51,960 nt of DNA from Proteromonas lacertae (Eukaryota), in contig NGBS01001203.1 in assembly GCA_002245135.1 (NCBI GenBank), positions 1 through 51,960 on the forward strand, in the 5' to 3' direction. Under the pieces are notes generated by a model. It searched no databases and had not been told where the DNA came from. It saw nothing but the letters and a program-made list of their open reading frames with translations. The position numbers and the translations under genes were made by a program. Below are positions 235 through 41,744 of the stretch, piece after piece (within the stretch, counting starts at the first letter, position 1; each line of letters opens with the position of its first letter).

Positions 235-390
235 CCCACCTACAGTGATATTCTTACGGTTATACATATATTAAACTTGAATATCAAATTAATTGAGCTT
301 ATAATAGACGAATTAAATGCTATTAATTAAAAAAAAAGCTTGAAGAGGTGTTTGATTCTTTCAAATACGTTGTTTAATATGATTGAAATT

Positions 391-3300: not shown

Positions 3301-6300
3301 ATTGATAAAACCAATCGAAGGAGCTGTTGAAGTGAAGTTTCAGTGTGGAAAAGATGGATCTAATACAATATTAAGATTCTCAAGTAATAATGGTTATATG
3401 TTATATTCAAATTCAAAAATAACAGAAATTAAAAGTTTCTTATATAATGATGGTGTTAAAAGTTGTGAAATATTTCCTTCTTTACCATTTGGAGTTGATT
3501 TTAATCCAACTTATTGTACAATCAATGGATATTTAACCAATGTAGTGAGTGAAATGAAAGAATACACCATAAAATATACAATGAAAGATGGAGAAAGGCC
3601 AATAGAAGATGAAAAGATAAGAATTGGAATTTCTTCCAATTTGATGGAATGTTCTTATGGAGTAGATGATGTAATTGTAATTCCTCAATCACAATCATTT
3701 ATAATCAATCAACCTCATTGTAATGTACCAATTCAAAGTTGTCGATTAAAGAGTGGAGCATTATTTGATAATTTGGTTTTGAATACTTTGATTGGTGAAT
3801 TATCAACAACAGGAATAGCAAATGTTCAGAATGAGAGAGAAATAATTATTGAATTTACTAATTCGAGACAAACAATAGAAACAAAACTGAAATTAAAAGT
3901 AGAATCAGTTTCACCAGCTAAATCTCATCCAATCCAATTCTTCCAATATCCATCCAATCAAATAATGTTTTTAAGTGGAGTATATATTGATGATATAAAA
4001 CCGTCATTTGAAGGAGAGTTGGACGATTGTGAAATAAGTAATGGTGTTAATTTACCAAGTGGAATTACATTAAATCCTACAACTTGTATAATAAATGGAG
4101 TAATGAGTAGTAAACCTTCTGATTCTCAAACAATAGTTATAAGAGGAAAGAATAGTCACAGTAAATCATCCTTCACTTTATTAATTAAATATTATGGAAG
4201 TGATGCAACTGAAGCAAATCCTGGATTTAGAGGATATTATTATAAAGATTATTTTGATGATACAGCCTGTTGTCAACATCATGAAATAACCGATAAAGCA
4301 ATATTGAAATATGTGATGATAAAGAATCAAATAGATTATAAGGATAACTCATATTTATGGCCTGATTTGAGTTATAATTTAGAACAACAACATTCTTTGA
4401 ATTTTTCGTATGTCTCAAATGGGTTTGATCGTCAAATTCAATGGCTGACAAGTGGAAGTTCATGGATGAATACTAGTGGAAGTAGTGTAAAATCATCTCA
4501 AAGTGAAAATTATTGTAAAAGTGACTGTCCATTAATAACTGGATTAGCTGGAAACTATCCTAAAGTATATGGAAATGCATTTATGTATTATGGAAGACCA
4601 AAAACCTCAGCTACATTCAGAGCTGTATTTAGATATAGAAATACAGAATCTGATTATCTTAACAGTATTATATATCACATTCCTGTTGGATTTATGGAAT
4701 ATAATTTCACTTATGCAATTTATCCATTAAATGCTCCAATTCCTGTGAATATTCCAATATTCCATAAATCAATAACATCAAGTAAATATACATCATTTTC
4801 TATATATCCAACATTACCAGAAGGTTTATTATTTAATGAAGGAAATGGAGAAATAAGTGGAAATACAAAAGCAGAATCACCATTAACATCATATTTTATT
4901 ACTGCAAATCCAAATTCAGTTGATAAAATCTCAACAAAAATAGAAATTGGTGTTGAAAGATATGAAGATACATCTACATTTACATGTCCAACAGAAGTTG
5001 AATATATAGTAGGTAATGAAATATCAATACAATGTGAAACAAGTCAATCGAAATTCACTTCAAGTTCATTACCAAGTGGTTTATCATTAGATAAAGATAC
5101 AGGAATTATTTCAGGAAAACCATTAGAAGCTGTTACTGGTTATACAGTAAAGATATATAGATATGGATTAGTAGGAATTTCATCAACTGAAATTACATTA
5201 AATATAAAATCCTCCAATTATTATTTCAGATTAATTTATGAATATGTTGAAGATAAAAATATTGAAATAAAACACAATGATAATACTGAAGTTACACCAA
5301 TTGTGAAAGATAGTCCAAGTTTAAAAGTAGTAGAATATGTAGTGAATGAGAATGGTGGAAATGGAAATTATATTATCAATTTTAAATATCCAGGAAAATA
5401 TATAATCTACAATTCAAAACAAGATATATTATTTGCTAGAGAAGTTAATTTAGATTCACCAGAAATATCACTATGTGTAACTGGAAATGGAATTCCAGTA
5501 ATAGAATATGAAAAGAGTGAATTTATACTAAAAACTGGTGTTGAGTTTTATATTGGTCCAAAAATAACGAATGGAGCTAATATATTCGAAATTGATAAAA
5601 TTCCCAAAGGAATGTATTTTGATTCATTTACAGGAGTGTTATCTGGTGTAATAGGAAAAGAATTTGATGGTGATGAAGTATTAATCCGATGTAGAAATGA
5701 GAATGGATATTCAACTGCAGTTTTATTATCATTAAAACCAGAAAAATGTGCAGGTGTTGTTTTATCTTTAACAATCAATTTCATTGATGAGAATAGTGAT
5801 AATTTAGTGAAATTAGAATCATCAGATATTAATAAAATACTATTTGATAAAACCAATGTTGTTTCAACAACTGAATCATTTTGTGTGGATGAAGGAATAT
5901 ATAATTTACATACAAAATTCTCAAATTCACAATCCTCAGTGAGAGTTGATGTAATTGATACTGAATCCTCTATTGAAATGATTCCTGGAAATAGTAAAGT
6001 ATCAATAATAGCCAACAAACTATATAATGAAGATAATAAATGGTATTATAATGACAATACACAGTCTGATAACTCATGGATTACATCTACTGAAAATACT
6101 GGTTGGATTGAAAGTAGACCAATATCATTTCCAGATAAATCTCCTTCACTAGTAACAAGATATTATAAGAATGTATTTAGTTATTCTAAATCATCTGATT
6201 TAGAGAAATATTTCAAAATCAAGTTTCAATATGAAGGTGGAATGATAATGTATTTGAATGGAAAAGAAATTTATAGATTTAATTTACCAGAAGGAATAAT

Positions 6301-9300
6301 AGATGGTAATACAAATGCATTAGAGAATATTGGATTAAAAGAAGTGAATTTACCACTTCCTTTATCAATTTTATCTTCATCAAATATATTAGCAGTTGAA
6401 ATTCATAAAGTCCAAGGTGATGTTACTGTGAAGGACAATTTTAATATTGATTATCAATTTATTCAAATCAATGAATGTGTAAGTAAACCATTATTGAAAG
6501 TAGAGTCAATCAAAGCATTTGGTAATGTGAATGGTGATATTGGTGAATATCAATTAACATCTGAAGAAATATCCAAACTAATAGATGATTCAACATCAAC
6601 CAAATTGAGTTTTGATATGAGAAGAAATAGTCATATAATGAATACTTGGATAGAAATAACATTTAAAGAAAAGATATTATTCAATAATTATATATTATCT
6701 GCTCCAAGTACTGGGTTATTAAACTCATTTCCAATCGATTGGGATTTATATGGAAAGAATGGTCAAAATGAATGGAAATTACTTCATGAGATAAGAAATA
6801 ATGTAGAACCAGTTTATAATGAAAAATTACCATTTTATATTCCTAATAATGATGTAGAATATGAAACATATTTATTTAATTTCACTCGTCGAGGTGTATC
6901 TGGTGATTATTTATCTCCTGAATTTACAATAGCTGATTTTATTCCTCAATTATGTAATTATCAAAGTTATTGTTCTAATTCAAATATACCAATGGGTAAA
7001 ACAATAATCTCAACCTGTGGTTATGGATTACAATCTGATGGTAAAACTGATTCATCAGAACCAGCTCGAATATATACAACATGTAGAAATGAAATAGGAA
7101 ATGCTGTTCTTGAAGAATCAACAGGAACAAGTTGTTCATTAAAGAGATATTGGTTTGGTTGTTCGTCTGAAGTAGAAGAAATATATGTGGGTGATGAAAT
7201 TAATAAACAATTATGTTTTATAATAATTAATGGAGATTTTACTATTTCTTACCAACCACAATTACCTGAAGGTTTAAATATTGATGGAAATGGATTATTA
7301 AATGGAAATGCAGTTCAAACTACTCCCAAAGTTAATACAAAAGTTACAATAACGTCAAGTGGAAATTATCTAGAAAATGAAAGAGTGAGATTTGATTATA
7401 TAAAATTGAAAGTGAATGGTCCAAGTTGTTCTGTTGAGAATAGTTGGCCAGAAACAGAAGTTGGTCATGTAGCAGAATTATATTGTGATGAAGGAAGTAA
7501 TAAGAATAAAGAATTTATGAAAAGAAAATGTGAATATGATAAAGATAATAAATCTGCAAAATGGTCGGATTATATAAATGAAACTGAATGTAATAATGGA
7601 GATGTATATCTTTCAACCTATCCAAATGTTGTTATTACTCATGAATTTAGTTCAGATATATCTTCAATCACACCAGAATCTGCATATATTACTAAAAGTG
7701 GTAAAATACTTACAGTCAATAGTAGTGTGGAAATAATTCAAAAATTCGAAGTTGGACTAAGTGATTCATTAAAACACAATGTTTATGTGAGTGTAGTGAG
7801 AGATGTAGGTAAATGTAGTTATGGTGTGGAATATATTAGAATTTATCCAATTGAAATAGATTTAGAATTAAAATGTGATAAAAAACCATCCTATTTATTA
7901 GTGGAAAATCTACCAAATGGATTGAGTGTAGATGGAAATGGAAGAATTAGTGGTATTATTGAAGATCCAACTGAGTATGAAGAATATAAAACGATAATCA
8001 CTTATATAATAGATAAGAAATATCGAATAGTATTGAATTGGTATAAAAAGACAAAAGAAATGTCAAATGGATTAGAATTTATAAATTTTGCAGAATCTGG
8101 GCAAGATGGATTGAGTGATTCAGTTTTTCAAAATACTCAATTGAAAGATATTTGGTCGAAATTTGAAAATGGAGTATATAAAATTCAAGAAAAGAAATTT
8201 ATTACTACTTCTTATGTGAATTTAGCATCATGTGTAGATTGGTGGAATCCATGTCAAAATGGAATAGCAAGAATGAGAGGATATATAAAAATAGATGAAG
8301 ATAAAAGTTATACATTTACAGGTAGATCTGATGATAGACAGAAATTTGCATTTAGAAATTATGAACAACAAAGATACAATACAGCAAACTGGCAGGATAT
8401 TGGAAGTTATACAGTCGAATTGAAAAAAGGATATTATGTAATTGGTTATTTGACATGGTATGGTGGTGGCGCAAATGATTTTCAAGCTTATGTTGATGGA
8501 AATCAATTAGATGGTAGAATATTTAGTGGTGGATTTTTACTTTCTCACTTGTCATATAACACATTATTTGTTCATTCTAATAAAGATGATAATATTAATC
8601 TTATTCCTAGTTTCAATGGAATTGTCTCAGAATGGGAAATAACTCCATCAATTGATGGATTATCAATTAGAAAAGATGGAGTAATAGAAGGAGTAATTTC
8701 AACATGTAATAATGATTATAAGTTAGTTGTTGTTCAATCTATTAATGATATAGATTTATGTAAATCATCAACAGAATTTCAGCTTCACTGTTTTGATAAA
8801 TCATATTCAACTATTCAAAATGGTTTAATAGTGAAATACTTTGTCTTACAATCAGTTGATATTAATCACAATATTGATATATCTACAATGAAAGAAGAGA
8901 ATTTGAGATTAGAAAGAATCGAAGATAATATTTATCATGATCAAAGTGAAGAATTATGGAATGCTTTACCAGATGAATTAGGTTATTCATTTGTAGCTGA
9001 ATATAAAGGATATCTTAGAATTAATTCTCAAATGAGTGGAAATATGAAAATATCTTTGGAATGTTATGATTATTGTAGATTAACATTATCAAGTTTGAAT
9101 ATAGAATGTTTAGGTTTTGGTTATCATAAACAATCATCAGATATTAGTTTAAGTGAAGGTAATTATCCAATTGAAATAATATATGGAAAAGGAGATTTTG
9201 ATAAAACCAAATTATTAAAAATCTATTATTCCAAAGATAGTGTGAATGAAACGCCAATCCCTCAATCATCTTACTTCTATAATCCTGAATATCCTATATT

Positions 9301-12300
9301 ATATAATCCAATTAAAACTATGTATTATAATGATTCAAATATATCAATTAATCATCCGTTTAAATCAAATACATTTATAAAAGATGTAACAAACGCTAAA
9401 TATTCAATTACTCCTTTACTCCCTGAAGGATTATCATTGAACGAAGATGATGGATCAATAAGTGGAACAACAGCATTAATTGATGATAATACAAATTATA
9501 TAGTAAAAACAGAATGGAATGATGGAAGTTATTATTATTCATCATTTTCTTTTTCAATATTACCAAAGAATGAAGCAATAATTGAATATTCAAGTAATTC
9601 ATTCGAATATGGTATTGGCGATAATATTAATATATCACCAACTAAGATGAAATGTGATTATATTCATGCATTAGGTTTGCCAAATGGAATATCGATTGAT
9701 AGAAATGGTTTGATAAGTGGAATAGGTAAATTTGCATTTGATAAAAATGTTGAAATTGATTGTTTTACATATAAGAAATATAGTGTTACTATTCATTTAA
9801 CTGTTGTGGCTTGTGCTGGAGGAAAAGGATTTTTTGAATTTCAATATTTAATTCATTCCAATCCTGAATTAGTCAGTTTTAAAATATATCCATCAAATAA
9901 TATTAGTAATGTGATATTTGAAGATACAAATAATTCAACATTACAAATTGAGAAAGAATATTCTTTTCATCAATGTGTTGAATATGGAAATTATAAATTA
10001 GAAGTAAAAACCAAATCTCCAAAAGGTGGTTGGTATAAAATATTCTATGAAGATGAGAATATATATCAATTTAAAGAATTTGAGATTGATATTTTAACAG
10101 AATTTCCAATCAAAAGTAGTTATGAAAAGCCAATAATTCATTATGAAGAAAATAATGTGTTATATTTCAATGAATATGAAAAGTCTGTCTATCCAAATTA
10201 TATTGAAAATGGTTTGAGTATGATGAATATAAAAAGTGGTGTATTACCAAATACAATCAAATTAGATTATAAAACAGGCGTATTATCAGGAACATTACCT
10301 TCAAATTCTGCAGAAATAAAATTGGTAATAGAGATGAGAAATACATTCAGTAAAGAAAATAGTGTAATAGAAATAACATTAAAATATGAAAAATGTCTAA
10401 TGGAAGTAAAAATATCTTTATTGGCAAGAAATTTACAAAGTGATAGAATTGATAATATATTATGTGAATTTAATAAAGAATATTATAAATATGAATTATT
10501 TTCAACTATTACAAATGGACTTCAATATAAAACAATGTGTTTAGAAGAAGGAAATTATATAGTAAAATTAGGAAGAAGTGATAATAGTAAAGACGCTTGG
10601 AAGTTTAGTGAATTTGTAATAAGTATAGTTGATGGTGGTGATGTATTTCGAGATAATTATCGAGGAGGAGAAATGAATGTGTTGAATGTGAATTTAAAGA
10701 ATTATTTCAAAAGTAGTGATGAATTTAAATACAGTGATGTAAATCCAACAAGTATAGATTGGTTAGAAGGCAAATCAATAGAAGAATGGAAAGATGTAAA
10801 TGGTGTAGAACCATTAAATGGAGTGAAAGAAAGATATTATATAAAGAAAATCGAATTTAAAGAATCAACAAATAATTTAACATCATTTTATATTCGAATG
10901 AAATATTTCGGCAAAGTGATTTTATATATGAATGGAATGAAATTCTATGAAACTAATCCAAACTATGCTATTGCTACTTCTGCGAATGATTTTGAATATT
11001 ATAAGATAAGTGGATCAATCAGTTTACTAGAAAGATATAATTCTAACTATTTAGGAATAATATATGAGAATATTTATGAATTATACTGGAGTTGATATAA
11101 TTGAATTGAAAGAAATGATTTTAATATCTGGAATTGATTCTTGTAGTTATTCAATCTATGAAGATTATGATAATAGTTATGTGTATGAGAATATAGCAAG
11201 TGTTAATAATACTCAGTATCATGAACCAGTGTATAATGCATTTAAACATTTAACGAGATGGATCAAAATCAACATGGCAGTATGTGAATATAAGTCAATT
11301 AATTCAATTTGGAATGAATTTTCTAACTATGAATCAAAATGGTTTAATGGAGTAATAATCAAAACAGGAACTACAAAAGATAGATATGCAGTAGATTGGA
11401 AATTGAATGTAAGAATAAATTCCACCACTCAAAAGACAATAATTGAAAGAAATGGAGATAATCAAGATGTATTTTGCCAACTGGATATGTAACCAAGTAT
11501 TTTTCATCTGATAATAATGATGATTATATGAGTTATAATGGAATTGAATTATATATAAGTAAACATGGAATTGATGGATTTGAAACAACAGAAATCTCTC
11601 CATTAAGTTGTAAAAATTCTTGTTTTAAAGAAAGTGAATGGAAATCAATATCAAAAGGAAAGACTAATTATGTATTATGTGAAAATAATAAAGCTGGATT
11701 TAAATCTCGAAGATGTGGTGAAGATTTAGAATGGGAAAATGAAAATGATAGTGAATGTATTGATGCTTTGTTAGATTTAGAAAATGAATGGGAATATTCA
11801 AATGTATATCATAATTCTCTTTGGACTGATATGAATTATTATGATGATATAAAATGGAATAAATATAGAATAAATGAATTTCCAATGAAAACCAAAATTA
11901 CTTCATATTATAAAACCAATTTGACAATTGATAAAGATTTAAATGTAATTGGAATTCCTGACATGTATGTTCGATATGAATGTGGAATAATGATATTTAT
12001 GAACAATAAAGAAATTTATCGAAATAACATGCCAATAGGAGAAATCAATGGAGAAACGTATGGATTAAATACCGAAAATGGATTGATATATAAGAAAATC
12101 TCAATTCCTGCAACTGTAATTCAAAGTGGCTTGAATGAAATAAAAGTAGAAATTCACAAATGTGAATCTAGTTTAAAGAATGAAATCGATATATTTTCAT
12201 TAACAATATCAAAAACAACAATATCTTCTAGTGGATTGAGTGTATGTAAAAGTATAGATCCAATTCCATCAATGTTTGAAGGTGGTGAATATTTTGACAA

Positions 12301-15300
12301 ATGTGAAGGAGATAAAATAGGAAAAAGAAAGATGGTATGTGAGAATAGTGGTAAATGGAGTGAATTTGATAATAGTGAATGTGTTGAATCAATACTAAAT
12401 TTGAATAGTTTATGGGAATATTCAAGTGAAGACAATGTTGAATCAAATTGGAATAATGAGTATTCTAATGATTGGCCAGAATATAAATTCAAAGAATTCC
12501 CAATTAAAACCAAAACCACTACCTATTATCGAAATGAATTTAAAATATCAGAATCATTAAATGAGTTTGGTCATCTTGAATTAATAATTCGATATAAATA
12601 TGGAATAATGATCTATATAAATGGAAATGAAATATTTCGACGAAATATGAATAATAATGGTATAACAAGCAGTGATAAAGCTATAAAATCGTTTATTGGA
12701 TTAACAGAAGAAAGAATCTCAATTCCCTCTAAATTGATAAGATATGGAAATAATAAGATAGGAATCGAAATTCATAAATGTAATCAAAGTTCATTATCTC
12801 AAATTGATTTCTTTTATGTGACATTAACAAAGACAGAAAAGATTAGTTTCAAGTGTATTAATAACTCCCAAAGATGATATTGATTATTTATTAAAACCTA
12901 TAAATCCTAACACTAATATAGAAGAAAAGGAAGGAATAAAAGACTTTGATAATATAGAAAGTATGGTAAAATATTTAGCTGCTTCAGCTTCAACTGAAAA
13001 AATGTATTTCCATTTTCAATAATATTTACATTTCGAAATCATGAAGCAAGATATTTCAATCAATTTGAAATAAGTGGTTGTACAAATGATTTTAATACTC
13101 ATCCAAAACATATAAATATATTTGGTTCAACAGATAGTGATAATCCAAATTGGATAGAATTATATAAAAATGAAGATTTAGGATTAAGTAAAAATGATTG
13201 TAGAGATAAATTCACATATTCATTACCAGTTTTAAAATCATTTGAATCAATAAAATTTGAAATACGTGCAGTGTATAGTTTTAATGGTTGGATTCAATTT
13301 CGATTATTAACATTTAATGAAATTCCAGTAATTGCTTGTCCTGCTATTAATGAATATCCATCAATATATGGAAATGAAATAGCTAATATAACATGTTCTG
13401 GAAGAGGTTATAAAACTCGAAAATGTAATGAAAATGGTGTTTGGAGTGGAACAATCGATTTGAGTAAGTGTGAAGAAAATATCTTATATTTATCGACTTA
13501 TCCATATACATCAAAGAGTATTAGTTTTGATCAAAAGATCTTATCTGTAACACCAATAACATCCTATTTTAGTTATAATGAGAGTAGTTTAACCTTAATA
13601 AGTAATAGTAGTGAAGAATTTGTGAATAAAATAACATTGAAATTAGAAAATGAAAAATCGTATTTTGTATATGTGAGTGTAATTCGAAGAGAGATTGAAT
13701 GTAATTATGGAGTTGATTATATTCGAATATATAATATGTATTATGATTTAAAATTGATATGTAACATAAATCCATCTGATATAATAGTAGATGGATTACC
13801 TGATGGTTTAATTGCAGATGAGAATGGAAGAATAAGTGGAATGATAAAAGATGCAACAGGTGTAGATCCAATAACAACAACAATAAGTTATGAATGTGAT
13901 AAACATATATCAATTAGATTAGAATGGTTAAGAAAAGAGAAAGATTTAACTTTTGGATTAGAATTTATAAATCAAAATGAATCAAATCAAGAATCTGGTC
14001 AAAATGATCTTGGAGGTCATAGTTGGAAAGAGTATTATGAAATGTTTGATAATGGAACATATAAAGTGTATGATAAATCAACAATTACATCAACAGAAGT
14101 AATTACATCAGTAGCAGATTCATCAAATTGTAATAATGATTGGTGGAATCCATGTTTTAATGAACTTGCTCGAATGAGAGGATATTTATTTATAGATTCT
14201 GATGGATCTTATCAATTTGGTGGATGTGGAGATGATGATGAAATGATGGCATTTATAAAGTTTGATAAAGAAGTTTATAGATATAATTATGGACAATGTC
14301 AATCATTTACATCAACATATGAGTTGAAAAAAGGATATTATCCAATTAGTTATATTCATTGGAATGGTGGCTGGCGGTAATTATTTCAAAGCTTATATTA
14401 AGAAATCAGGAAATGAAAAAACAAATTTAGATGGAAAAATATTTAGTGGTGGATTTATTTTATCTCATTTATCATATGGAACAAACACAATAGAATATAA
14501 TGAAGGAATAAATCAAATAATTTTACCTAATTATGATGGTATAATATCTGATTGGAAAATGGAACCTTCAATCGATGGAATAACTATTCGAAAAGATGGT
14601 GCAATAATTGGATATCCTACAAACTGTGATGATGAATTTAAAGCCTTTAGTATAAGTTCAATAAGTGATATTAATATAACCAAATCCACTTCAAAAATGC
14701 AAATGATTTGTCACAGTAATAATAATAATAAAGATAATAAAAAGAAAAATGGATTATTAGTAAAATATTATATAGGTGATGAAATAAATGTAGATTCGTT
14801 TATCGAACCAACTATGATAGTTGGATCAAAACTGATGATATATCGAATAGAGAAAGAAAATATATATCACAGTGAAAGTGATAATATATGGACAGGATTA
14901 TTATTAACAATGTCTGAATTATTTGTAGCAAAATATAGTGGTTATATAAAAATACCAGATGGTGGAAGTTATTCATTTAAATTGAAATGCTATGATTATT
15001 GTCGAGTCAAAATTGGAGATGAAGAAATAGAATTGACTGGAAGTGGATATCATGAAACTACAAAAGAAATAACATTATTATCAGCAGAATTATATAAATA
15101 TGAGATGAATTATGCCAAAGGAGTTGGTTTAAGAAAACAATTAGAATTAGAATATTCAATAGGTGGAAGTTCATATACTATAGTTCCAAATGATTGGTTA
15201 TTTGTAGATAATCCATATCCATTTGTTTATCAATCAATAATCAATCATTATATTCAAGACCAACCAATAGATGATAATATTTTAGTTTCTTATATGTCAA

Positions 15301-18300
15301 ACAGTGATAATTTCAATTATTCAATATATCCATATTTACCACTTGGAATGTTATTTTCTGAAAATGATGGTAAAATAAGTGGAACTCCATCAGTGAAAGA
15401 TGATGAAAGAAAATACCTAGTAAGAATAAATGATAAAAATAATGGTGATGAGTATTATAGTGAAGTAATAATCTCCAGTATCTGAGAATGTTAAAGCCGA
15501 ATTAAAATATGAAAGTGAGTTAATATGTAAAATTGGTGAAGAATTTGAATTTATTCCAATAAAGAATACATGTGAAAGACTGAAAATACTAGAAAAGAGT
15601 GAATTTGTATCAATAGATGAAAATGGTAAAATAAGTGGAAAAAGTTTAGGCGTATATAATGGCTCAATAAAAATGGAATGTATAACATTAATAGAATCCA
15701 AAGTGATTGAATATAATTTGAAAGTGAAAGGATGTGAAAATGAAAAAGAATTTTTAATACTGGAATATTTAATCGAAAGTGACAGTGAAAGTGTATCATT
15801 CGAAATAATAAATGGAGATGAAAGTTTGTATAAAAGTGATAATTCAATAACAATAAATACAATGCATAGTTATATGGGATGTATAAAAAGAGAAAATAGT
15901 AAACTGATAATAAAATCAAAATCTTATTTAGGAGGATGGTATAGATTATATTATGAAAACTACAATCTATTTAAATCAAATTCCTTTTTCAGAGATGAGA
16001 TAGTTGATTTAATAATGATAGAAAATCCATCAATCCTCAAATGAAAAGCCTGTATTAAGTTATAATCCATCTAATTTCGAATTGGTGAAAGGAATAGAAT
16101 ATGAATTTTATCCATCGATAGAAAATGGAGGTAAAATATTTGAAATAGAAAATGAGAATGAAATTCCAAATGGAATGAAAATTGATAAAATAAATGGTTT
16201 AATATCTGGAAGAATAGAATCTGATATAGTTGGATGAATAAAGTGATTAGAATATCTGTAACAAATACAAACAACAACATGACGAGTGAAAAATTAATAA
16301 TCATTTTTTCTTCAATTGAATGTAAATTTTCTTTGTTTGAAGTAAAACTGAAAATTCACGAAGATGATTTGAATTTCATTTCTTATTCAATGAAAAGTGA
16401 TAAGAAAGAATATAAACTGTTTAATAGGAAAGTTGGTGATAATAAAAGAGAATTTTGTGAAGATATAGAAAATGTGAAAGTGGAATTAGGACGAGATGAT
16501 GGAAATAAAGACGCTTGGAAATTTAGTGAATTTGTAATAAGTATAGTTGATGGTGGTGATGTATTTCGAGATAATTATCGAGGAGGAGAAATGAATGTGT
16601 TGAATGTGAATTTAAAGAATTATTTCAAAAGTAGTGATGAATTTAAATACAGTGATGTAAATCCAACAAGTATAGATTGGTTAGAAGGCAAATCAATAGA
16701 AGAATGGAAAGATGTAAATGGTGTAGAACCATTAAATGGAGTGAAAGAAAGATATTATATAAAGAAAATCGAATTTAAAGAATCAACAAATAATTTAACA
16801 TCATTTTATATTCGAATGAAATATTTCGGCAAAGTGATTTTATATATGAATGGAATGAAATTCTATGAAACTAATCCAAACTATGCTGTTGCATACTTCT
16901 GTGAATGATTTTGAATATTATAAGATAAGTGGATCAATCAGTTTACTAGAAAGAAATAATTCTAACTATTTAGGAATAATATATGAGAATATTTATAATT
17001 ATGCTGGAGTTGATATAATTGAATTGAAAGAAATGATTTTAATATCTGGAATTGATTCTTGTAGTTATTCAATCTATGAAGATTATGATAATAGTTATGT
17101 GTATGAGAATATAGCAAGTGTTAATAATACTCAGTATCATGAACCAGTGTATAATGCATTTAAACATTTACGAGGATGGATCAAAATCAACATGGCAGTA
17201 TGTGAATATAAGTCAATTAATTCAATTTGGAATGAAATTTTCTAACTATGAATCAAAATGGTTTAATGGAGTAATAATCAAAACAGGAACTACAAAAGAT
17301 AGATATGCAGTAGATTGGAAATTAAATGTAAGAATAAATTCCACCACTCAAAAGACAATACTTGAAAGAAATGGAGATAATCAAGATGTATTTGCAACTG
17401 GATATGTAACCAAGTATTTTTCATCTGATAATAATGATGATTATATGAGTTATAATGGAATTGAATTATATATAAGTAAACATGGAATTGATGGATTTGA
17501 AACAACAGAAATCTCTCCATTAAGTTGTAAAAATTCTTGTTTTAAAGAAGGTGAATGGAAATCAATATCAAAAGGAAAGACTAATTATGTATTATGTGAA
17601 AATAATAAAGCTGGATTTAAATCTCGAAGATGTGGTGAAGATTTAGAATGGGAAAGTGAAAATGATAGTGAATGTATTGATGCTTTGTTAGATTTAGAAA
17701 ATGAATGGGAATATTCAAATGTATATCATAATTCTCTTTGGACTGATATGAATTATTATGATGATATAAAATGGAATAAATATAGAATAAATGAATTTCC
17801 AATGAAAACCAAAATTACTTCATATTATAAAACCAATTTGACAATTGATGAAGATTTAAATGAAATTGGAATTCCTGACATGTATGTTCGATATGAATGT
17901 GGAATAATGATATTTATGAACAATAAAGAAATTTATCGAAATAACATGCCAATAGGAGAAATCGATGGAGAAACGTATGGATTAAATACCGAAAATGGAT
18001 TGATATATAAGAAAATCTCAATTCCTGCAACTGTAATTCAAAGTGGCTTGAATGAAATAAAAGTAGAAATTCACAAATGTGAATCTAGTTTAAAGAATGA
18101 AATCGATATATTTTCATTAACAATATCAAAAACAACAATATCTTCTAGTGGATTGAGTGTATGTAAAAGTATAGATCCAATTCCATCAATGTTTGAAGGT
18201 GGTGAATATTTTGACAAATGTGAAGGAGATAAAATAGGAAAAAGAAAGATGGTATGTGAGAATAGTGGTAAATGGAGTGAATTTGATAATAGTGAATGTG

Positions 18301-21300
18301 TTGAATCAATACTAAATTTGAATAGTTTATGGGAATATTCAAGTGAAGACAATGTTGAATCAAATTGGAATAATGAGTATTCTAATGATTGGCCAGAATA
18401 TAAATTCAAAGAATTCCCAATTAAAACCACAACCACTACCTATTATCGAAATGAATTTAAAATATCAGAATCATTAAATGAGTTTGGTCATCTTGAATTA
18501 ATAATTCGATATAAATATGGAATAATGATCTATATAAATGGAAATGAAATATTTCGACGAAATATGAATAATAATGGTATAACAAGCAGTGATAAAGCTA
18601 TAAAATCGTTTATTGGATTAACAGAAGAAAGAATCTCAATTCCCTCTAAATTGATAAGATATGGAAATAATAAGATAGGAATCGAAATTCATAAATGTAA
18701 TCAAAGTTCATTATCTCAAATTGATTTCTTTTATGTGACATTAACAAAGACAGAAAAGATAATTTCAAATGTATTAATAACTCCCAAAGATGATATTGAT
18801 TATTTATTAAAACCTATAAATCCTAACACTAATATAGAAGAAAAGGAAGGAATAAAAGACTTTGATAATATAGAAAGTATGGTAAAATATCAAGCTTCTA
18901 CTTCAAATACAAATGATGTATTTCCATTTTCAATAATATTTACATTTCGAAATCATGAAGCAAGATATTTCAATCAATTTGAAATAAGTGGTTGTACAAA
19001 TGATTTTAATACTCATCCAAAACATATAAATATATTTGGTTCAACAGATAGTGATAATCCAAATTGGATAGAATTATATGAAAATGAAGATTTAGGATTG
19101 TCAGATAACAATGGTTGTCCAAAGAAATCAACATATTCATTACCAGTTTTAAAATCATTTGAATCAATAAAATTTGAAATACGTGCAGTTTCTAGTTTTA
19201 GTGGTTGGATTCAATTTCGATTATTAACATTTAATGAAATTCCAGTAATTGCTTGTCCTGCTATTAATGAATATCCATCAATATATGGAAATGAAATAGC
19301 TAATATAACATGTTCTGGAAGAGGTTATAAAACTCGAAAATGTAATGAAAATGGTGTTTGGAGTGGAACAATCGATTTGAGTAAGTGTGAAGAAAATATC
19401 TTATATTTATCGACTTATCCATATACATCAAAGAGTATTAGTTTTGATCAAAAGATCTTATCTGTAACACCAATAACATCCTATTTTAGTTATAATGAGA
19501 GTAGTTTAACCTTAATAAGTAATAGTAGTGAAGAATTTGTGAATAAAATAACATTGAAATTAGAAAATGAAAAATCGTATTTTGTATATGTGAGTGTAAT
19601 TCGAAGAGAGATTGAATGTAATTATGGAGTTGATTATATTCGAATATATAATATGTATTATGATTTAAAATTGATATGTAACATAAATCCATCTGATATA
19701 ATAGTAGATGGATTACCTGATGGTTTAATTGCAGATGAGAATGGAAGAATAAGTGGAATGATAAAAGATGCAACAGGTGTAGATCCAATAACAACAACAA
19801 TAAGTTATGAATGTGATAAACATATATCAATTAGATTAGAATGGTTAAGAAAAGAGAAAGATTTAACTTTTGGATTAGAATTTATAAATCAAAATGAATC
19901 AAATCAAGAATCTGGTCAAAATGATCTTGGAGGTCATAGTTGGAAAGAGTATTATGAAATGTTTGATAATGGAACATATAAAGTGTATGATAAATCAACA
20001 ATTACATCAACAGAAGTAATTACATCAGTAGCAGATTCATCAAATTGTAGTAATGATTGGTGGAATCCATGTTTTAATGAACTTGCTCGAATGAGAGGAT
20101 ATTTATTTATAGATTCTGATGGATCTTATCAATTTGGTGGATGTGGAGATGATGATGAAATGATGGCATTTATAAAGTTTGATAAAGAAGTTTATAGATA
20201 TAATTATGGACAATGTCAATCATTTACATCAACATATGAGTTGAAAAAAGGATATTATCCAATTAGTTATATTCATTGGAATGGTGGTGGTGGTAATTAT
20301 TTCAAAGCTTATATTAAGAAATCAGGAAATGAAAAAACAAATTTAGATGGAAAAATATTTAGTGGTGGATTTATTTTATCTCATTTATCATATGGAACAA
20401 ATACAATAGAATATAATGAAGGAATAAATCAAATAATTTTACCTAATTATGATGGTATAATATCTGATTGGAAAATGGAACCTTCAATCGATGGAATAAC
20501 TATTCGAAAAGATGGTGCAATAATTGGATATCCTACAAACTGTGATGATGAATTTAAAGCCTTTAATATAAGTTCAATAAGTGATATTAATATAACCAAA
20601 TCCACTTCAAAAATGCAAATGATTTGTCACAGTAATAATAATAATAAAGATAATAAAAAGAAAAATGGATTATTAGTAAAATATTATATAGGTGATGAAA
20701 TAAATGTAGATTCGTTTATCGAACCAACTATGATAGTTGGATCAAAACTGATGATATATCGAATAGAGAAAGAAAATATATATCACAATGAAAGTGATAA
20801 TATATGGACAGGATTATTATTAACAATGTCTGAATTATTTGTAGCAAAATATAGTGGTTATATAAAAATACCAGATGGTGGAAGTTATTCATTTAAATTG
20901 AAATGCTATGATTATTGTCGAGTCAAAATTGGAGATGAAGAAATAGAATTGACTGGAAGTGGATATCATGAAATTACAAGAGAAATAATATTATCAGCAG
21001 AATTATATAAATATGAGATGAATTATGCCAAAGGAGTTGGTTTAAGAAAACAATTAGAATTAGAATATTCAATAGATGGAAGTTCATATACTATAGTTCC
21101 AAATGGTTGGTTATTTGTAGATAATCCATATCCATTTGTTTATCAATCAATAATCAATCATTATATTCAAGACCAACCAATAGATGATAATATTTTAGTT
21201 TCTTATATGTCAAACAGTGATAATTTCAATTATTCAATATATCCATATTTACCACTTGGAATGTTATTTTCTGAAAATGATGGTAAAATAAGTGGAACTC

Positions 21301-24300
21301 CATCAGTGAAAGATGATGAAAGAAAATACCTAGTAAGAATAAATGATAAAAATAATGGTGATGAGTATTATAGTGAAGTAATAATCTCCGTATCTGAGAA
21401 TGTTAAAGCCGAATTGAAATATGAAAGTGAGTTAATATGTAAAATTGGTGAAGAATTTGAATTTATTCCAATAAAGAATACATGTGAAAGACTGAAAATA
21501 CTAGAAAAGAGTGAATTTGTATCAATAGATGAAAATGGTAAAATAAGTGGAAAAAGTTTAGGCGTATATAATGGCTCAATAAAAATGGAATGTATAACAT
21601 TAATAGAATCCAAAATGCTTGAATATAATTTGAAAGTGAATGGATGTGAAAATGAAAAAGAATTTTTAATACTGGAATATTTAATCGAAAGTGACAGTGA
21701 AAGTGTATCATTCGAAATAATAAATGGAGATGAAAGTTTGTATAAAAGTGATAATTCAATAACAATAAATACAATGCATAGTTATATGGGATGTATAAAA
21801 AGAGAAAATAGTAAACTGATAATAAAATCAAAATCTTATTTAGGAGGATGGTATAGATTATATTATGAAAACTACAATCTATTTAAATCAAATTCCTTTT
21901 TAGAGATGAGATAGTTGATTTAATAATGATAAAAAATCCATCAACCTCAAATGAAAAGCCTGTATTAAGTTATAATCCATCTAATTTCGAATTGGTGAAA
22001 GGAATAGAATATGAATTTTATCCATCGATAGAAAATGGAGGTAAAATATTTGAAATAGAAAATGAGAATGAAATTCCAAATGGAATGAAAATTGATAAAA
22101 TAAATGGTTTAATATCTGGAAGAATAGAATCTGATATAGTTGATGAAAAAGTGATTAGAATATCTGTAACAAATACAAACAACAACATGACGAGTAAAAA
22201 ATTAACAATCAATTTTTCTTCAATTGAATGTAAATTTTCTTTGTTTGAAGTAAAACTGAAAATTCACGAAGATGATTTGAATTTCATTTCTTATTCAATG
22301 AAAAGTGATAAGAAAGAATATAAACTGTTTAATAGGAAAGTTGGTGATAATAAAAGAGAATTTTGTGAAGATATAGAAAATGTGAAAGTGGAATTAGGAC
22401 GAGATGATGGAAATAAAGACGCTTGGAAATTTAGTGAATTTGTAATAAGTATAGTTGATGGTGGTGATGTATTTCGAGATAATTATCGAGGAGGAGAAAT
22501 GAATGTGTTGAATGTGAATTTAAAGAATTATTTCAAAAGTAGTGATGAATTTAAATACAGTGATGTAAATCCAACAAGTATAGATTGGTTAGAAGGCAAA
22601 TCAATAGAAGAATGGAAAGATGTAAATGGTGTAGAACCATTAAATGGAGTGAAAGAAAGATATTATATAAAGAAAATCGAATTTAAAGAATCAACAAATA
22701 ATTTAACATCATTTTATATTCGAATGAAATATTTCGGCAAAGTGATTTTATATATGAATGGAATGAAATTCTATGAAACTAATCCAAACTATGCTGTTGC
22801 TACTTCTGTGAATGATTTTGAATATTATAAGATAAGTGGATCAATCAGTTTACTAGAAAGAAATAATTCTAACTATTTAGGAATAATATATGAGAATATT
22901 TATAATTATGCTGGAGTTGATATAATTGAATTGAAAGAAATGTTTTTAATATCTGGAATTGATTCTTGTAGTTATTCAATCTATGAAGATTATGATAATA
23001 GTTATGTGTATGAGAATATAGCAAGTGTTAATAATACTCAGTATCATGAACCAGTGTATAATGCATTTAAACATTTAAGGGATGGATCAAAATCAACATG
23101 GCAGTATGGAAATATAAGTCAATTAATTCAATTTGGAATGAAATTTTCTAACTATGAATCAAAATGGTTTAATGGAGTAATAATCAAAACAGGAACTACA
23201 AAAGATAGATATGCAGTAGATTGGAAATTAAATGTAAGAATAAATTCCACCACTCAAAAGACAATACTTGAAAGAAATGGAGATAATCAAGATGTATTTG
23301 CAACTGGATATGTAACCAAGTATTTTTCATCTGATAATAATGATGATTATATGAGTTATAATGGAATTGAATTATATATAAGTAAAACATGGGAATTGAT
23401 GGATTTTGAAACAACAGAAATCTCTCCATTAAGTTGTAAAAATTCTTGTTTTAAAGAAGGTGAATGGAAATCAATATCAAGAGGTGAAATAAGAAATGTA
23501 AAATGTGGAATAAATACTGATGCATATAAAACAAGAAAATGTAATGATGATTTAGAATGGGAAAATGAAATAGATGATAGAATGTGTAATGCAAAATGTA
23601 TGAAAGATGTTTATGGTTTAAATATTACAACTAATGCTGGAACAAAAGTAAATATTACTTGTCCAATTGGTATTGATGGAAATTGGATTGCTTATTGTGA
23701 TGCGACTATAAATCCATCATTTATAAGCATTCAAGATAATTGTTATGATGTCAGATATGAAATGATTTATTATATTGAAAAAGAGAATAATATAAATATT
23801 TCTCCAATAATAATAGGAAATATTCCATCATTAGAATTTACATTATTATCAAATCCAAATTACATTAGTATTGATGTTACAAGTGGAATAATTAGTGGAA
23901 GTATTCCTTCAGAAATGACAGATGGAGTAATAAGAATAGAAGTTAATATAAAACCAAGAAATATTAATTATACAATAGATATAGTAGTGAAAAGTGAAAA
24001 TCAGAATAATGACTTTTATCAGTTATTAGTATCAGAGAGTGAAAAAGTTGCAATTGATAAATCAGTATATAATTGATATGGATATTTGGAAAAGTCCAAG
24101 TAATGATGAAATGAAATTCAAAGAGTTGAATGGAAATGGAGAAAATACAAAAATAATATTGAAATATTATCTTCACCAAAATTTCAATAACAGTAATAGT
24201 CTAATAGAAAATATAAAGAATAAAATAATGAAACATATTCATATCAATGTGAATATATATGGATATGATGGTGATTCAAAGATAGAATCAAAATCAATAT

Positions 24301-27300
24301 TTAAATCAATAGAGAACAGTTATTTATATGATATAGAAATGAAAATAGAGGATGATATTGAAATAATAGTTGATAATGATAATAATGAAAATGGATTGTT
24401 ATTTAATTCTTTAACCAATTCCATATTATTACATGTTGGAATAATAAGTGAAAAGTCAGTAAAAATCAATATAAACAATGATAATGTAATATATGGTTTA
24501 ATAAGTGGCAAATTAGATAATGATAATAATAATAATAAAAATGGTGAGAAAGAAATAAGTGGAATATTTGTAAAGGTGAATAAATATTCAATAGAATCAA
24601 GAAATAAGAATGTGAAGAATGGTTTATTATTTGGTGAAGTAAAAGATTTAAAACTCTCTTACAGTTTCATCGATGTAAATGAGATGAGTGTGAATGTTAA
24701 AAGTGGAAGTGTTAGTTTAACAATAGTAAGTGGAATATCAAATAGTAAAATTGAATATTATCGATGTTTTACATTAATTGGAAATACAGTGAATATAGAA
24801 AGTGAAGATGAGTTGTTATTCAGTCCATACTTAAATGAAGGAGAAAATGAATTATTGATTGATGAAAGTTGGAATGAATTGAAAATAGGCAAATTATCTG
24901 GTGAAATTGAGATATTGTGGTTTTAATTGTCTATCAAATACAAATAACAATGAGAATATGAAAATGTTATTATCGAATAGTTATATAAATTATCATTTTA
25001 ATGAAAATCCATCAAAAGCCATAAATGTTTATGTAATATCAAAATATTCAAATTCAAAATCTTCAATTTCAAATATTTATATATCAATCACTTCTAAGAG
25101 TGATGTTTCACTTTCCAATATAAATGGATTTGATTTTAATAAAGATGAAAATGGTTCAAAACTAGATGTAATAGAAAGTGTGTATATAGAACATTCAACT
25201 TCAATCAGTATAACAAATTCATATAATGATGAAAGAATAAAGATAGTTAATGAAAATGACAGTGATGTGAGAGAAAAACCATATAAATATCTAAATGGAT
25301 TTTATACAATAGATTCAAAATTATACTATTCGAAAATGATAAAGTATAATGGAAATAAACTGGATAGATGAATATGGAATATTTGAGAATGTGGATATTA
25401 CATTTAGAAATGATAATTCAATTGAAAAACCATCAACAATCAAGTCAATATGGATAAGGAATGAAGATCCTTATAGTTTTATTTACACAATCAAACCATA
25501 TTCACTATATTTCTTATCAAAAGAATCCCAAGAAGTTACAATCTCAGTATCATCATCAACATCTGATTGTATTTCATTTGATTCTAAATCAATTGTTTTA
25601 ACATCTCCACTTCAAATCAATTATCAATCTAATAACAAAATTGCAATGAATATAGACAAATGTAATAACAAAGCATATTCTAATCATGAAATAGAAATAA
25701 AAGGTTCAGGAAATAGTTATACACAGTCATTAACATTAGAAATAATAAATGATGAAATTAAACCAGAATATGAAACAGATATGAAAGATAATATAGACTT
25801 AGAGAGTGGATTTTATATTCAATTTTCATTACCATATCCATCAAAAGTAGAATTAATAAATGTAATGAATAAAGATAAGAATGAAGAATCAAAAGAATTA
25901 ATAGTGGATGAATGGATCATGTTGAAATGAAATATGAACTGGATAATTATTTATATAAAATGAACTTGAAAAGTGGAAATGTTTCAATTCCAACAAATGT
26001 AGAGTTTATATTGAATGTGATATTTGATAATAATGGCTATAAGATGAAAGAATATAATTATTCCTTATCTACCACAATTCAACCAATATGTGCATATTCA
26101 TTTAATTATAGTGAAAATAATATATTAATAAAAGGTGAACAATTTTCAATATCTCCTGAATATGAAGGATATGGAGGTGTATTTTCTATTATAGATCAAT
26201 CTACCAAATCTTTATTAGAATCTATAGGAATAATGTTTGATGAAAAGAGTGGAATATTTTCAGGAATACCAAATCAATACACTTGAAGAAATTGAAATCG
26301 AAGTAAAAATGAAGAATTATAAATATGAATTTAATACTAAACTGAAAATAGAAGTAATATACCCTCCACCAAATCAATTGAAATATGAAAATGAAAGTTA
26401 TGAAATAATATTAAATGAAATATTTGAAATAAAACCATCTGAATGGGATGATAAAGTAGAAGCAAAGTTTTCATATGAATCGAATATAAATCTGGAAGAT
26501 TATAATATAACATTGAATAATGAGAATGGTATAATAAGTGGAATTCCAACAGAATTATTAAATAGAACTGAAATCAGAATAATATTGAAGAATAGAGGAG
26601 GAAATATATCATTTATATTGAATTTGTCAATTACATATCCACCATTGTCAAGAATAAGTTATGATAAAGAAAAGATAGGAGTATTAGATGCTTATTTTGA
26701 ATATAAACCAAATTATGAACATCCAGATCCTTCAGTGAAATATAAAATGAATAAAGAAGATTTAAATATTTTGCGTGATGCTGAGTTGACATTTAATGAA
26801 TCCAATGGAATAATAAGTGGATTTCCAATTATTGAAATAAATAAAATGTTGAAAATAAAGATAACAAGTGATAATGATAAAGAAGGAATAGAAATAGAAA
26901 TATCAGTCATTATTAACACATTACCTCCTGAAGTATATTATGAAAACTCAACCATGAAAGTATATTATAATGTTTCATTTATTTACAAACCAATTTCAAT
27001 TGTAATGAAACAAAATATATATTTTGTAAGTGAAGAAGATGAAAAAATATTAGAAGAATACAATATGAAATTGAATAACAAAACAGGTGAAATCTCAGGA
27101 AAACCAATGAAATTAACAGATAAAACAAAAGATGTGATTATAAGAATAAACGTGAATAATACAGTTGGTTCAAATTCAACAATTTTGAAAATAGTGGTAG
27201 TTTATTCCCCACCAACAGTTTTAGAATATCCTAAAGATAATTTGAAGATATTTGTAGATGAAGAATTTGAGTTAAAGCCATGCAAAGTAGTGGGAGAAAT

Positions 27301-30300
27301 AGATATAAAATTCAGATTAGAATCTAAAGAAACAGATATATTTGATAAATATAATATTACAATAGATGAAAATGATGGAACAATTCGTGGATTATCTCAT
27401 GAAGTGATATATGATCCAATTGAAATAAGCATAACAGCATATAATGAAGAAGGGTCAATTAGTTTCAAAATGAATTTCACAGTAGTTTATCCAATTCCAT
27501 TTGAGTTTTCAAGTGAAGAAGTATCTTATTTGTATAACACAATTACCTCATTTGAAACAAAAGAAATTAAAACCAAATATTCTGGAAAAGATTTGAATAT
27601 AAAATATGAATGTTCACCAGATCCTAATGATTATAAATTGAAGTTTAATGAAACAAATGGCATAATAAGTGGATTATTGAATATAGCAAATACATATAAT
27701 TTCACAATATCAGCATCTAATTTAGAAGGTAAATCTTCTGAATCGATAAGAATCTCAATTCGAATTCGAAATGTGAAATGTAGTAAACTTGAATATTCCT
27801 CTTCGAATTATACATTTTATGAATATGAAAGTGTAGTGAAAATACCTAGTCCCGAATCTGATACAATGATTGATTACTATGAGATGTTAGAAGAATCAAA
27901 ACTTGAATCTTATGGATTAAAATTCAATAAATCAACTGGTGAAATAAGTGGTGTCAGTGGAAAAAGAACTCGAGGAGAGGTTTTCAGAATATTTGGAATA
28001 AATGAAGATGGAAATTGTTCAACTCAAATCACAATAATAATTAAGATTCGTCCACCAACAGTTTTAGAATATTCTACAAATAATTTGAAAGTATATATTG
28101 GTGAAGAATTTGAATTAAAACCAAGTAAAATAGTTGGTAAAACTGATATAAAATTCAGATTAGAATCTAAAGAAACAGATATATTTGATAAATATAATAT
28201 TACAATAGATGAAAATGATGGAACAATTCGTGGATTATCTCATGAAGTGATATATGATCCAATTGAAATAAGCATAACAGCATATAATGAAGAAGGGTCA
28301 ATTAGTTTCAAAATGAATTTCACAGTAGTTTATCCAATTCCATTTGAGTTTTCAAGTGAAGAAGTATCTTATTTGTATAACACAATTACCTCATTTGAAA
28401 CAAAAGAAATTAAAACCAAATATTCTGGAAAAGATTTGAATATAAAATATGAATGTTCACCAGATCCTAATGATTATAAATTGAAGTTTAATGAAACAAA
28501 TGGCATAATAAGTGGATTATTGAATATAGCAAATACATATAATTTCACAATATCAGCATCTAATTTAGAAGGTAAATCTTCTGAATCGATAAGAATCTCA
28601 ATTCGAATTCGAAATGTGAAATGTAGTAAACTTGAATATTCCTCTTCGAATTATACATTTTATGAATATGAAAGTGTAGTGAAAATACCTAGTCCCGAAT
28701 CTGATACAATGATTGATTACTATGAGATGTTAGAAGAATCAAAACTTGAATCTTATGGATTAAAATTCAATAAATTAACTGGTGAAATTACTGGATTTTG
28801 TATAAATAGAACTCGAGGAGAGATTTTCAAAATATTTGGAATAAATGAAGATGGAAATTGTTCAACTCAAATCACAATAATGATAACTATCCCTCCACCA
28901 CCATTTTATGGGTATGAAAATAATAATGTAATAATATTTAAGAGAACAAGAGAAAGCAGATCCTCAAATCCAATATTAAAGTTTAATAACAATACAGTGA
29001 ATGAAATCGATGGTTATAGATTGAATGTGACAGACGATGTGTTGAAAGAGTATAATATAATATTTAACAAGAGTAGTGGTGTGTTCAGTGGAATGAGTGA
29101 AAAGAATGGATATATGTATATCGAAGTAACAGCTTATAACTATGCAGGAGATAAAATGCAGAATGTAATATTGAATATAACAGATCCAATTCCTAACTCA
29201 TTGAATTACAGTAATGCTTTGATAGACAGAAAGTTTTATGTTGGAAAGAGTCATTCAATTGAACCATTAGAATATGATCGATCAATATTGTACTTTGAAA
29301 TAGAACCGCTAGAGAAATTAAGTGAATATGAATTGATATTTGATAAAATAAGTGGAAGAATAAGTGGAAATATTTCCTCTCCATTTGAATTTACAACCTT
29401 TACAATATTTGGATGTAATAATAATCCCGAAAATGTAAAATTGAATTACTCCTTAGAATTAATAGGCAAACATCCTCCACCTGTTTATATAGAATATAAT
29501 CCTAATTATTTATCTGTTTATATAAATGTAACATTCACATTTGACAATCCAAGAGTGATTGGTAATTATACCTCATTTGAAATAGATAGTTTAGATAAAT
29601 ATGAAAATGGAAACGTGAAATTTGATAGTAAGACTGGTAATTTTAGTGGTTATTATACAGTTTATTATGAAACTCCAATAGTGTTTATAATCTATGTAAT
29701 GAATGATGAAGGAAATGCTTCAACAAGTGTTAGTTTACAAGTATTATCACCTCCACCTTCTTCAATTGAATATAATCAAAGTGTTTATTATTGTATTCAG
29801 TTGTTAGATTGTGTAATACCCAAACCAACAATGGGAGATTTAGATAAAATCGATGGTTATTCAACGAATGATACAATATCAGAATATGGCTTAATATTGA
29901 ATAAAGTAGATGGATCTATAAATGGAATAGTAAATACAAAATATTTAGGTTTTATCTATTTGAATATAACAGCTTATAATTTAGCTGGTTTAATATCCAC
30001 AACTATAACAATAAAGATAATACGAAATGAACATGAAAGTGTTACTCCAGCTCCAATACCAAGTATTGAACCACCAACACCTCCACCTGAAAATGTAATA
30101 GAAGAAGTGAATGAAATGTTTAACCATGAAACTGTTTCTAGTTTTGTCAATGAAAATCCAATGATATTAAAGAGATTGGTTTGTAATTCAAATACAACTG
30201 ATTATTATGAAGATCTGATTAGAATAGAGGGAAAATTACCATCTATTTTTAGTATAGATGATGAAATAATGTTTATGAAATATCCAATCAGAAAATATAT

Positions 30301-37698: not shown

Positions 37699-38408
37699 AT
37701 TTCTTTCATCATTTCATATAATAAATGTATAATAAGTAGTTTAATTATTATATATATCATACCCTTTTCACTATATTTTTACATAATTAACATTAACAAA
37801 ACACTATTACATTTTCTTATATTTGCCAATGAGTATGTTAATTAATACTACGTTCTCCCATATTCATTAACCATTAAAGGCAATTTTCATTAATAATCAC
37901 TTTATCTTCCTTTCACAAACTAAATATACAGCATTAAATCATAATTCTATCATTAACTGCATTATATTATAGTTTTCTTACTTTAATGCAACTATCTAAG
38001 GTTAAGATTCTCTACAGTTTAGTAATATATTATCATCTACACCATATTATTTACTACAGAAGTGTAAAAATATATTTATAATGTCATTATAACCACATTA
38101 TAATGAAGCAAGTTTTACATTTATTATCAAAAATATATTCGTTTCATAATTTAAAAAAGTACAAAAATAGTCATAATTTCTTTCACATAATCATACCTTA
38201 ATTTTTTGAAAAAAATGTTAACATGAATATATTTTTAATAAAATAGATCTAAAGAATTTATCAAAAGATTTAGAAATACTTCATATGTTTGAAGTATATT
38301 AGCTTTATTTAACTGTTGAATTAAAAATTAATAATTCACAACATACAATGAGAAAAACAAATAGAATTAAAAAGAAAAGGTTTGGCTTGAATAATTACAT
38401 TTTTAATA

Positions 38409-39775: not shown

Positions 39776-39910
39776 TGATTATTCTTTCACTCTTTTTCTT
39801 ATATATCACTCTCTCTTTTGTAATTTCTTATAAACAATTAATATCATATTAATAATGTTATATTAAAAGAAAATATACTATATATCAATCTATTCATGTT
39901 ATTATATTAA

Positions 39911-41727: not shown

Positions 41728-41744
41728 ATAATAATGAATAATAA

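Follow-up and report, generated by a model that had tools for sequence, protein, structure and literature searches.

Near-identical repeats of a giant Proteromonas lacertae gene differ mainly in three predicted loops of one F5/8C-like domain

The 51,960-nucleotide contig NGBS01001203.1 of Proteromonas lacertae (assembly GCA_002245135.1), analysed here at its full length (positions 1 to 51,960) and referred to as the window, has a GC content of 26% and carries a giant gene (379..32798) that includes two tandem copies, A and B, of a 5.9-kb repeat. These copies appear to bear two versions of one domain of the F5/8C fold that differ mainly in three predicted tip loops. The explanation we favor, with a probability of about 0.6, is diversifying or balancing selection on a binding tip, with recombination and gene conversion homogenizing the rest. 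Features lie on the forward strand unless otherwise indicated.

Three patches of difference between repeats A and B

A preliminary description of this DNA, made from the letters alone, had reported near-identical 5.9-kb repeats, and our alignments bear this out, with a repeat period of 5,918 bp and an identity of 98.2% over 7,125 bp. Copy A (10566..16483) has many 1-nt frame slips, copy B (16484..22391) is open in one frame from 17115 to 21914, and a partial copy C (22392..23585) is B-like at most sites to ~23480, after which it fades into an older paralogous Cys linker. The global alignment of A and B spans 5,925 columns, with 62 substitutions and 24 gap columns, the latter consisting of 15 single-base gaps and three 3-nt indels. 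The F5/8C-like domain lies at 12833..13345 in A and at 18750..19262 in B, the copy that was modeled with AlphaFold2 and assigned through fold and profile matches. We find 22 of the 62 substitutions within one 330-bp segment of this domain, and 21 of these fall in three patches, in agreement with the three dense patches and the in-frame indel first reported. For segments of 30, 100, and 330 nt, the maximum numbers of substitutions are 10, 13, and 22, respectively, compared to null maxima of 6, 8, and 14, and none of 5,000 random placements reached the observed clustering, confirming that divergence is not uniform along the repeat. The three patches are real in the assembled sequence.

Patch 1 (A, 12975-13001; B, 18891-18917) and patch 2 (A, 13184-13213; B, 19099-19130) each include an in-frame 3-nt indel, which is accompanied by 8 substitutions and a 1-nt gap in patch 1 and by 10 substitutions in patch 2. 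Patch 3 (A, 13273-13284; B, 19190-19201), with 3 substitutions, falls in the hairpin between the last two strands, where A has Tyr and B has Ser. The peptides encoded by the patches are as originally given. Only a single change is found in the ~180 nt separating patches 1 and 2, and the interval from patch 2 to patch 3 has none. The reading frame of copy A is broken within the domain by 1-nt slips at 12843 and ~12995-13001, which leaves the exact length of its patch 1 uncertain.

Outside the patches, A and B diverge by ~0.5%. A second, more distant F5/8C-like domain in the repeat (17235..17530, assigned by alignment only) provides an internal control, as its A/B changes show no dense cluster. 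A smaller cluster of 7 substitutions is located at the left edge of the repeat (10574-10587). The second PA14-like domain also has a small cluster, of 2 substitutions and a 3-nt indel (15058-15075 in A and 20974-20988 in B), which may be a further variable loop or a local error.

Substitution rates were compared between the patches and the remainder of the repeat, with multi-hit codons scored as non-synonymous. Over 1,526 background codons, the proportions of non-synonymous (pN) and synonymous (pS) differences are 0.006 and 0.003 to 0.005, whereas over the 22 patch codons they are 0.36 to 0.39 and 0.11 to 0.15, respectively. The divergence peak at the patches extends to synonymous sites, and this excess (Fisher P of 0.003 to 0.006) is based on 2 changes. 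Because synonymous changes are also raised, the data suggest that the patch variants predate the 0.5% divergence of the background and have not simply evolved faster. Separately, 16 of the 25 background substitutions are A/G and 21 are non-synonymous, with 0 stops and a GC content at third codon positions of 12%. This A/G-rich, non-synonymous background may reflect mutation bias, error, or relaxed selection.

Fold of the variable domain and its relatives

Two AlphaFold2 models of domain B were generated, with mean predicted local distance difference test (pLDDT) scores of 57.8 and 62.0 and a core of ~65 to 88. In VIA-align, the domain matches 7nsn_B with a Z score of 9.7 (root mean square deviation of 4.2, 131 residues aligned), a match tied by many CBM32 and DOC/discoidin chains, and Foldseek retrieves the CBM32 structure 2v72 with an E value of 5e-5. 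Atlas places the domain in F5/8C clusters with a score of 0.96, and its profile hidden Markov model (HMM) matches 7nsn (E value of 8.5e-9) and 4lks (E value of 0.016). By these model and profile comparisons, the domain is a beta-sandwich of the F5/8C/CBM32 galactose-binding-like fold. The initial label of lectin-like is therefore appropriate for the fold but does not extend further, as the Pfam F5_F8_type_C family (PF00754) scores domain B at 15.3 bits, below its gathering score of 28.2 bits, and the galactose-binding His and Arg are not kept. Of two older paralogs of the domain in the same gene, D2 scores 17.0 bits and D1 has no match.

The patches were then located on the fold. Patch 1 (residues 48 to 56) aligns to the 4lks loop bearing His1671 and Tyr1674, and a loop that is invariant between A and B (residues 82 to 91) aligns to Arg1702 and Asn1707. 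As described in the available portion of PMC5291390, CBM32 modules bind by variable loops at the apex, and these 4lks residues contact the sugar. Patch 2 (residues 118 to 127) is the loop joining strands 107 to 112 and 125 to 130, with a Cys kept in A, B, and D2, whereas patch 3 (residues 148 to 151) lies outside the 4lks alignment and is positioned by strand order only. In the models, patch 1, loop 82-91, patch 2, and patch 3 form alternate strand connections and would therefore share one end of the domain; the three connections at the opposite end are identical in A and B. The patches are thus predicted to map to the ligand-binding end, on one face. That the patches share a face, as anticipated in the preliminary description, is supported by strand order and the 4lks alignment, but for patch 3 by order alone. 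Its broader proposal, a conserved framework with diversified binding-end loops, is supported by the fold match, the loop positions predicted here, and recurrence in relatives.

The canonical galactose site comprises His, an aromatic residue, Arg, Asn, and a second aromatic, and it is not recovered in the 4lks alignment (E value of 0.016). Cys occupies the Arg1702 position and patch 1 lacks His in both A and B, while Asn1707 is matched. With neither the canonical His nor the canonical Arg retained, the domain could bind a sugar other than galactose, or a ligand that is not a sugar. Equally, a non-canonical site does not preclude sugar binding, because many CBM32s are non-canonical, according to the part of PMC5291390 available to us.

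A HMMER search of 1.84 billion representatives returned four matches, P0003, P0004, P0005, and P0006. P0003 is a bacterial-type F5/8C repeat protein, while P0005 and its cluster, Nonlabens repeat proteins, were rejected as spurious, since they match only the low-confidence N-terminal arm. P0004 and P0006, which derive from Logan contigs, are giant proteins that have the architecture of the present protein and, in addition, a hydrophobic segment at the C terminus. Between P0004 and P0007 (4,814 aa), which belong to one cluster, 127 columns differ after residue 60; the first 60 residues, which hold 67 of the 194 differing columns, were excluded because the two N termini align poorly. In the matching domain, 72 of 206 positions differ, versus 55 of 4,548 (~1.2%) elsewhere (P = 7e-69), and within the domain the differences amount to 29/47 in tip loops versus 10/76 in strands and base loops (P = 3e-8). 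The other F5/8C-like domain of this pair has 2 differences. In the P0006 cluster of 10 members, P0016 and P0017 differ from the rest in the domain, with 4/41 changes at the tip versus 0/71 in the core (P = 0.016), and a comparison among the other 8 members shows the domain to be free of variable columns. As judged from these protein alignments, loop-centered variation recurs independently in two families of distant relatives.

Residues 1644 to 1753 of P0006, in and before a PA14-like domain, represent a second candidate variable binding region. A word-index search with domain B among proteins of 301 to 2000 aa matched none of 369 candidates. With the P0004 domain as the query, the sole match among 114 candidates was the query itself, and 233 shorter candidates gave no match. 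No relative was recovered when metagenomes were scanned with P0004 and P0006.

Selection, gene conversion, and competing explanations

The older paralogs D1 (1406..1900) and D2 (2501..3019) bear on how the repeat is kept uniform. Although D2 and B share only ~50% protein identity, a 162-nt framework tract (B, 18939..19100; A, 13025-13184; D2, 2672-2833) has mismatches at just 7/162 positions between D2 and B and 8/160 between D2 and A, versus 30/162 between D1 and B. The D2/B pS is 0.13 over the core of the tract, compared to 0.56 in the flanks, and two of its four amino acid changes are inside loop 82-91. The tract is likely a sign of gene conversion. A separate 843-bp tandem Ig repeat (27209..28907) is identical over a central 631 bp, the 37 differences being confined to the two ends, and the two observations together imply that conversion or unequal crossover acts across the gene. 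The older copies do differ at the patch positions, as had been pointed out, but they differ at most other positions too. Enrichment in tip loops is found for D2 versus B (33/55 versus 18/69; P = 2e-4) and not for D1 versus B (32/48 versus 37/70; P = 0.18).

We propose that selection would keep the tip loops different while recombination or gene conversion would keep the remainder alike. The loop variants may have been retained as old alleles and put in tandem by unequal crossover at a 1.1-kb segment, X/X', that is common to A, B, and C; alternatively, they may have been retained as paralogs under conversion. Peaks of divergence between duplicates that undergo conversion have been described as a signature of selection, as for red/green opsin exon 5 and RHD/RHCE in the accessible text of Fawcett and Innan (2011, PMC3924837). 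Each loop set would present a distinct binding surface, and the binding partner is most likely a specific gut molecule, whether a glycan or a protein, of the host, prey bacteria, kin cells, or a virus. We prefer a specific partner to general antibody pressure, as the variation is concentrated in one domain and nearly absent from the other exposed domains.

Several points weigh against this proposal. On the structural side, the domain B models are weak, with the N-terminal 44 to 56 residues below a pLDDT of 50 and the arm unreliable, the placement on one face depends on strand alternation and a weak alignment without patch 3, and the canonical sugar-binding residues are absent. The background pN/pS is at least 1 (21 non-synonymous and 4 synonymous changes) and therefore gives no support for purifying selection on the repeat, and a giant gene with many frame slips could be decaying. 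Among the relatives, the N-terminal arm is also highly variable between P0004 and P0007 (33/77), unlike that of A and B, and the densest variation of the P0006 cluster is elsewhere, at residues 1644 to 1753 (11 in 110; P = 0.003). The tip segments were drawn after the differences were known, such that the Fisher tests of the loops are not blind, and the relatives, whose variants may be alleles or paralogs, were compared at the protein level only. Finally, the 843-bp repeat warns that patchiness alone proves little; what would set the patches apart is that three islands occur within the repeat unit, at one predicted end of the domain.

Two competing explanations concern the assembly itself. A and B might represent one unit, present as two alleles or strains, that the assembler duplicated in tandem by passing twice through X/X', in which case the loop variation would be allelic. 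This scenario is unlikely but compatible with selection on the tip. Copy B resembles C at most sites to ~17550 and A thereafter, a pattern expected from either a chimera or unequal crossover. In addition, the ~0.5% divergence outside the patches is similar to that between P0004 and P0007, and copy A is dense in frame slips. However, unequal crossover yields an identical junction, frame slips occur in unique sequence too (~24050-26260 and 30490), and the gene has other real internal duplications. It is extremely improbable that the patches reflect errors of the consensus caused by insufficient polishing of the repeat. While the 15 single-base gap columns indicate that the region likely carries errors, and a weak, uninformative simulation left 20% of 20,000 random 20-error sets stop-free with the Cys kept, errors would not gather 21 of the 62 substitutions into three loops at a single predicted end of the domain, nor would they reappear in the corresponding loops of relatives that were assembled independently. 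Moreover, patch 2 of A is as near to D2 as to anything in the window, at 10/30 mismatches.

The remaining explanations invoke biology of another kind. The preliminary description had inclined to a variable-adhesin or antigenic-variation system, and in its strict form, with loop cassettes copied from silent paralogs into an expressed gene and the framework serving as recombination handles, we consider this rather improbable. The framework tract is homogenized even with D2, its ends adjoin patch 2 and lie near patch 1, and the changes are dense and multi-base, including in-frame indels and synonymous changes, all of which such copying would explain. Yet no donor for any of the six patch sequences is present in the 52-kb window, where the best non-partner matches have 6 to 13 mismatches in 21 to 32 nt, all four domain copies lie within one coding chain, and 8 of the 10 P0006-cluster members are invariant in the domain among themselves. 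A system with silent donors and switching therefore finds no support in the window. We also hold it quite improbable that there is no selection for change at all, with loops that tolerate mutation and diverged islands that resist conversion while the framework is homogenized. Beta-sandwich loops are generally variable, the 843-bp Ig repeat shows that conversion alone gives patchy divergence in this gene, and the patches are raised in synonymous divergence as well. In contrast, the opposite-end loops of the domain are unchanged between A and B, the islands of 12 to 32 nt are surrounded by kilobases of identical sequence, unlike the differences of the 843-bp repeat, which are all terminal, and 72 of the 127 P0004/P0007 differences fall in one domain, compared to 2 in the sister F5/8C-like domain. 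A diversity-generating retroelement was considered and rejected, as the patch changes include C/T, G/T, and C/G pairs plus in-frame indels and are not confined to adenine; Pfam scans of 33 of the 53 open reading frames (ORFs) in the window gave no match to a reverse transcriptase.

Selection on the binding tip, opposed by conversion, is an already known evolutionary mechanism. Here it narrows the focus to one small, expressible domain (a 170-residue construct), four loops, and three separate protein families, where selection likely acts. A wider proposal, which we regard as doubtful, is that Blastocystis-type gut stramenopiles have a dedicated recognition system, in which a domain of the F5/8C fold is presented on giant Ig-stalk proteins and recombination via the conserved framework shuffles its four tip loops. 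If true, it would provide strain-specific binding faces for kin recognition, host or prey choice, or virus escape. The finding bears on how such protists attach in the gut and on what determines their strain and host specificity; in the available part of PMC3129679 the Blastocystis Ig-repeat proteins are so far only named as candidate adhesins.

The giant gene, its surroundings, and known systems

The gene at 379..32798 was delineated by chaining 16 collinear ORFs, together with Pfam, hydropathy, and the start region, and would encode ~10,800 aa as a single gene, provided that its single-base frame slips are errors of the consensus. The initial 10.7 kb is uninterrupted in one frame and the later breaks are single-base slips, which are probably such errors and also occur outside the repeats. 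Introns were considered at eight frame-switch junctions, none of which has an intron-like look by eye. The predicted protein contains He_PIG Ig repeats, PA14-like and F5/8C-like domains, and a C-terminal EGF module, as identified with Pfam. No transmembrane segment is predicted (hydropathy maximum KD19 of 1.47), for which reason secretion or association with a coat is more likely for this protein than anchoring in a membrane. The giant surface protein first described is thus giant and probably exported, but a membrane anchor is not predicted. The EGF-rich C-terminal module (31839..32798) is Sig2-like, based on an Atlas feature score of 0.95 in oomycete-dominated clusters and on Pfam EGF families, and occupies the end at which relatives P0004 and P0006 have a hydrophobic segment. 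We take Sig2 to be a family of stramenopile mastigoneme-type proteins, and the module may anchor the giant protein to a surface hair or coat. A signal peptide is likely at the start of the protein and requires a short GT-AG intron at ~413-440. Short introns and a GC content as low as 21 to 23% are described for the genus Blastocystis in the portions available of PMC12129017 and PMC10690189. The GC content of 26%, the predicted short intron, and the Sig2-like module would together fit an AT-rich, Blastocystis-type stramenopile.

To the right of the giant gene, Pfam identifies a nucleotide-diphospho-sugar transferase family gene on the reverse strand (37099-37713) and a purine nucleoside phosphorylase family gene on the forward strand (38391-39389), whose product has a hydrophobic C-terminal tail. 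These are followed by a non-coding inverted repeat (39905-40636 and 41002-41733) with 732-nt arms that are 99% complementary and 365 nt apart. The inverted repeat, spanning 39905-41733, is just left of an unannotated, virus-like ORF run (42215-49775), in which a putative P-loop ATPase with a frame slip in its coding sequence (48056-48980) comes after two beta-rich ORFs (45557-46546 and 46524-48060). The run has a Walker A match and a weak PHROG terminase match (E value of 7e-4), and searches of viral contigs and the PDB found no match to it. By its gene order, the run may be a Polinton-like or virophage-like element integrated into the protist genome.

The domain shares its fold and strand order with CBM32/F5/8 type C modules such as CpGH31 CBM32-3 (4LKS) and the GH92 module (7NSN), in which variable apex loops form the binding site, as far as the available text of PMC5291390 describes. 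Unlike these modules, it is below the Pfam cutoff, does not keep the canonical His and Arg, and lies within a 10,800-aa eukaryotic Ig-repeat protein in which a catalytic domain was not found, such that it is a predicted binder. Opsin exon 5 and RHD/RHCE likewise involve near-identical duplicates with short high-divergence islands at likely functional sites (PMC3924837, accessible portion). The present duplicates differ from them in being inside one gene, with three islands on one predicted surface and recurrence in distant relatives.

Blastocystis, likely a related lineage, has He_PIG repeats in large proteins, as here, and 26 He_PIG (IPR008009) candidate adhesin genes are listed for subtype ST7 in the part of Denoeud et al. 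(2011, PMC3129679) that was available, which does not report an F5/8C-like domain, hypervariable loops, or such a size. A further difference is the Sig2-like EGF end of the present protein, in place of a membrane anchor. We found no description of hypervariable F5/8C-like loops in Blastocystis or its relatives in the literature covered, from which subscription journals and supplements were mostly absent, and term searches of the available text of PMC5608401 gave no description of such loop variation.

In yeast FLO adhesins, ectopic recombination among surface-protein paralogs would similarly change adhesion (PMC3512402, available excerpt). Unlike in FLO, the variation here is restricted to F5/8C-like domain loops inside the chain. 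Donor-cassette antigenic variation is known from Neisseria pilE/pilS, Anaplasma msp2, and Treponema TprK, which, as here, have short variable regions between conserved frameworks; the likeness is confined to this layout, as silent donors are not found in the window. Dictyostelium TgrB1 and TgrC1 are Ig-repeat surface proteins of allorecognition with locally concentrated polymorphism, and thus a protist parallel, although the variable domain differs. The proposed tip loops on a conserved framework are also comparable to the complementarity-determining regions of an antibody, carried on its V framework.

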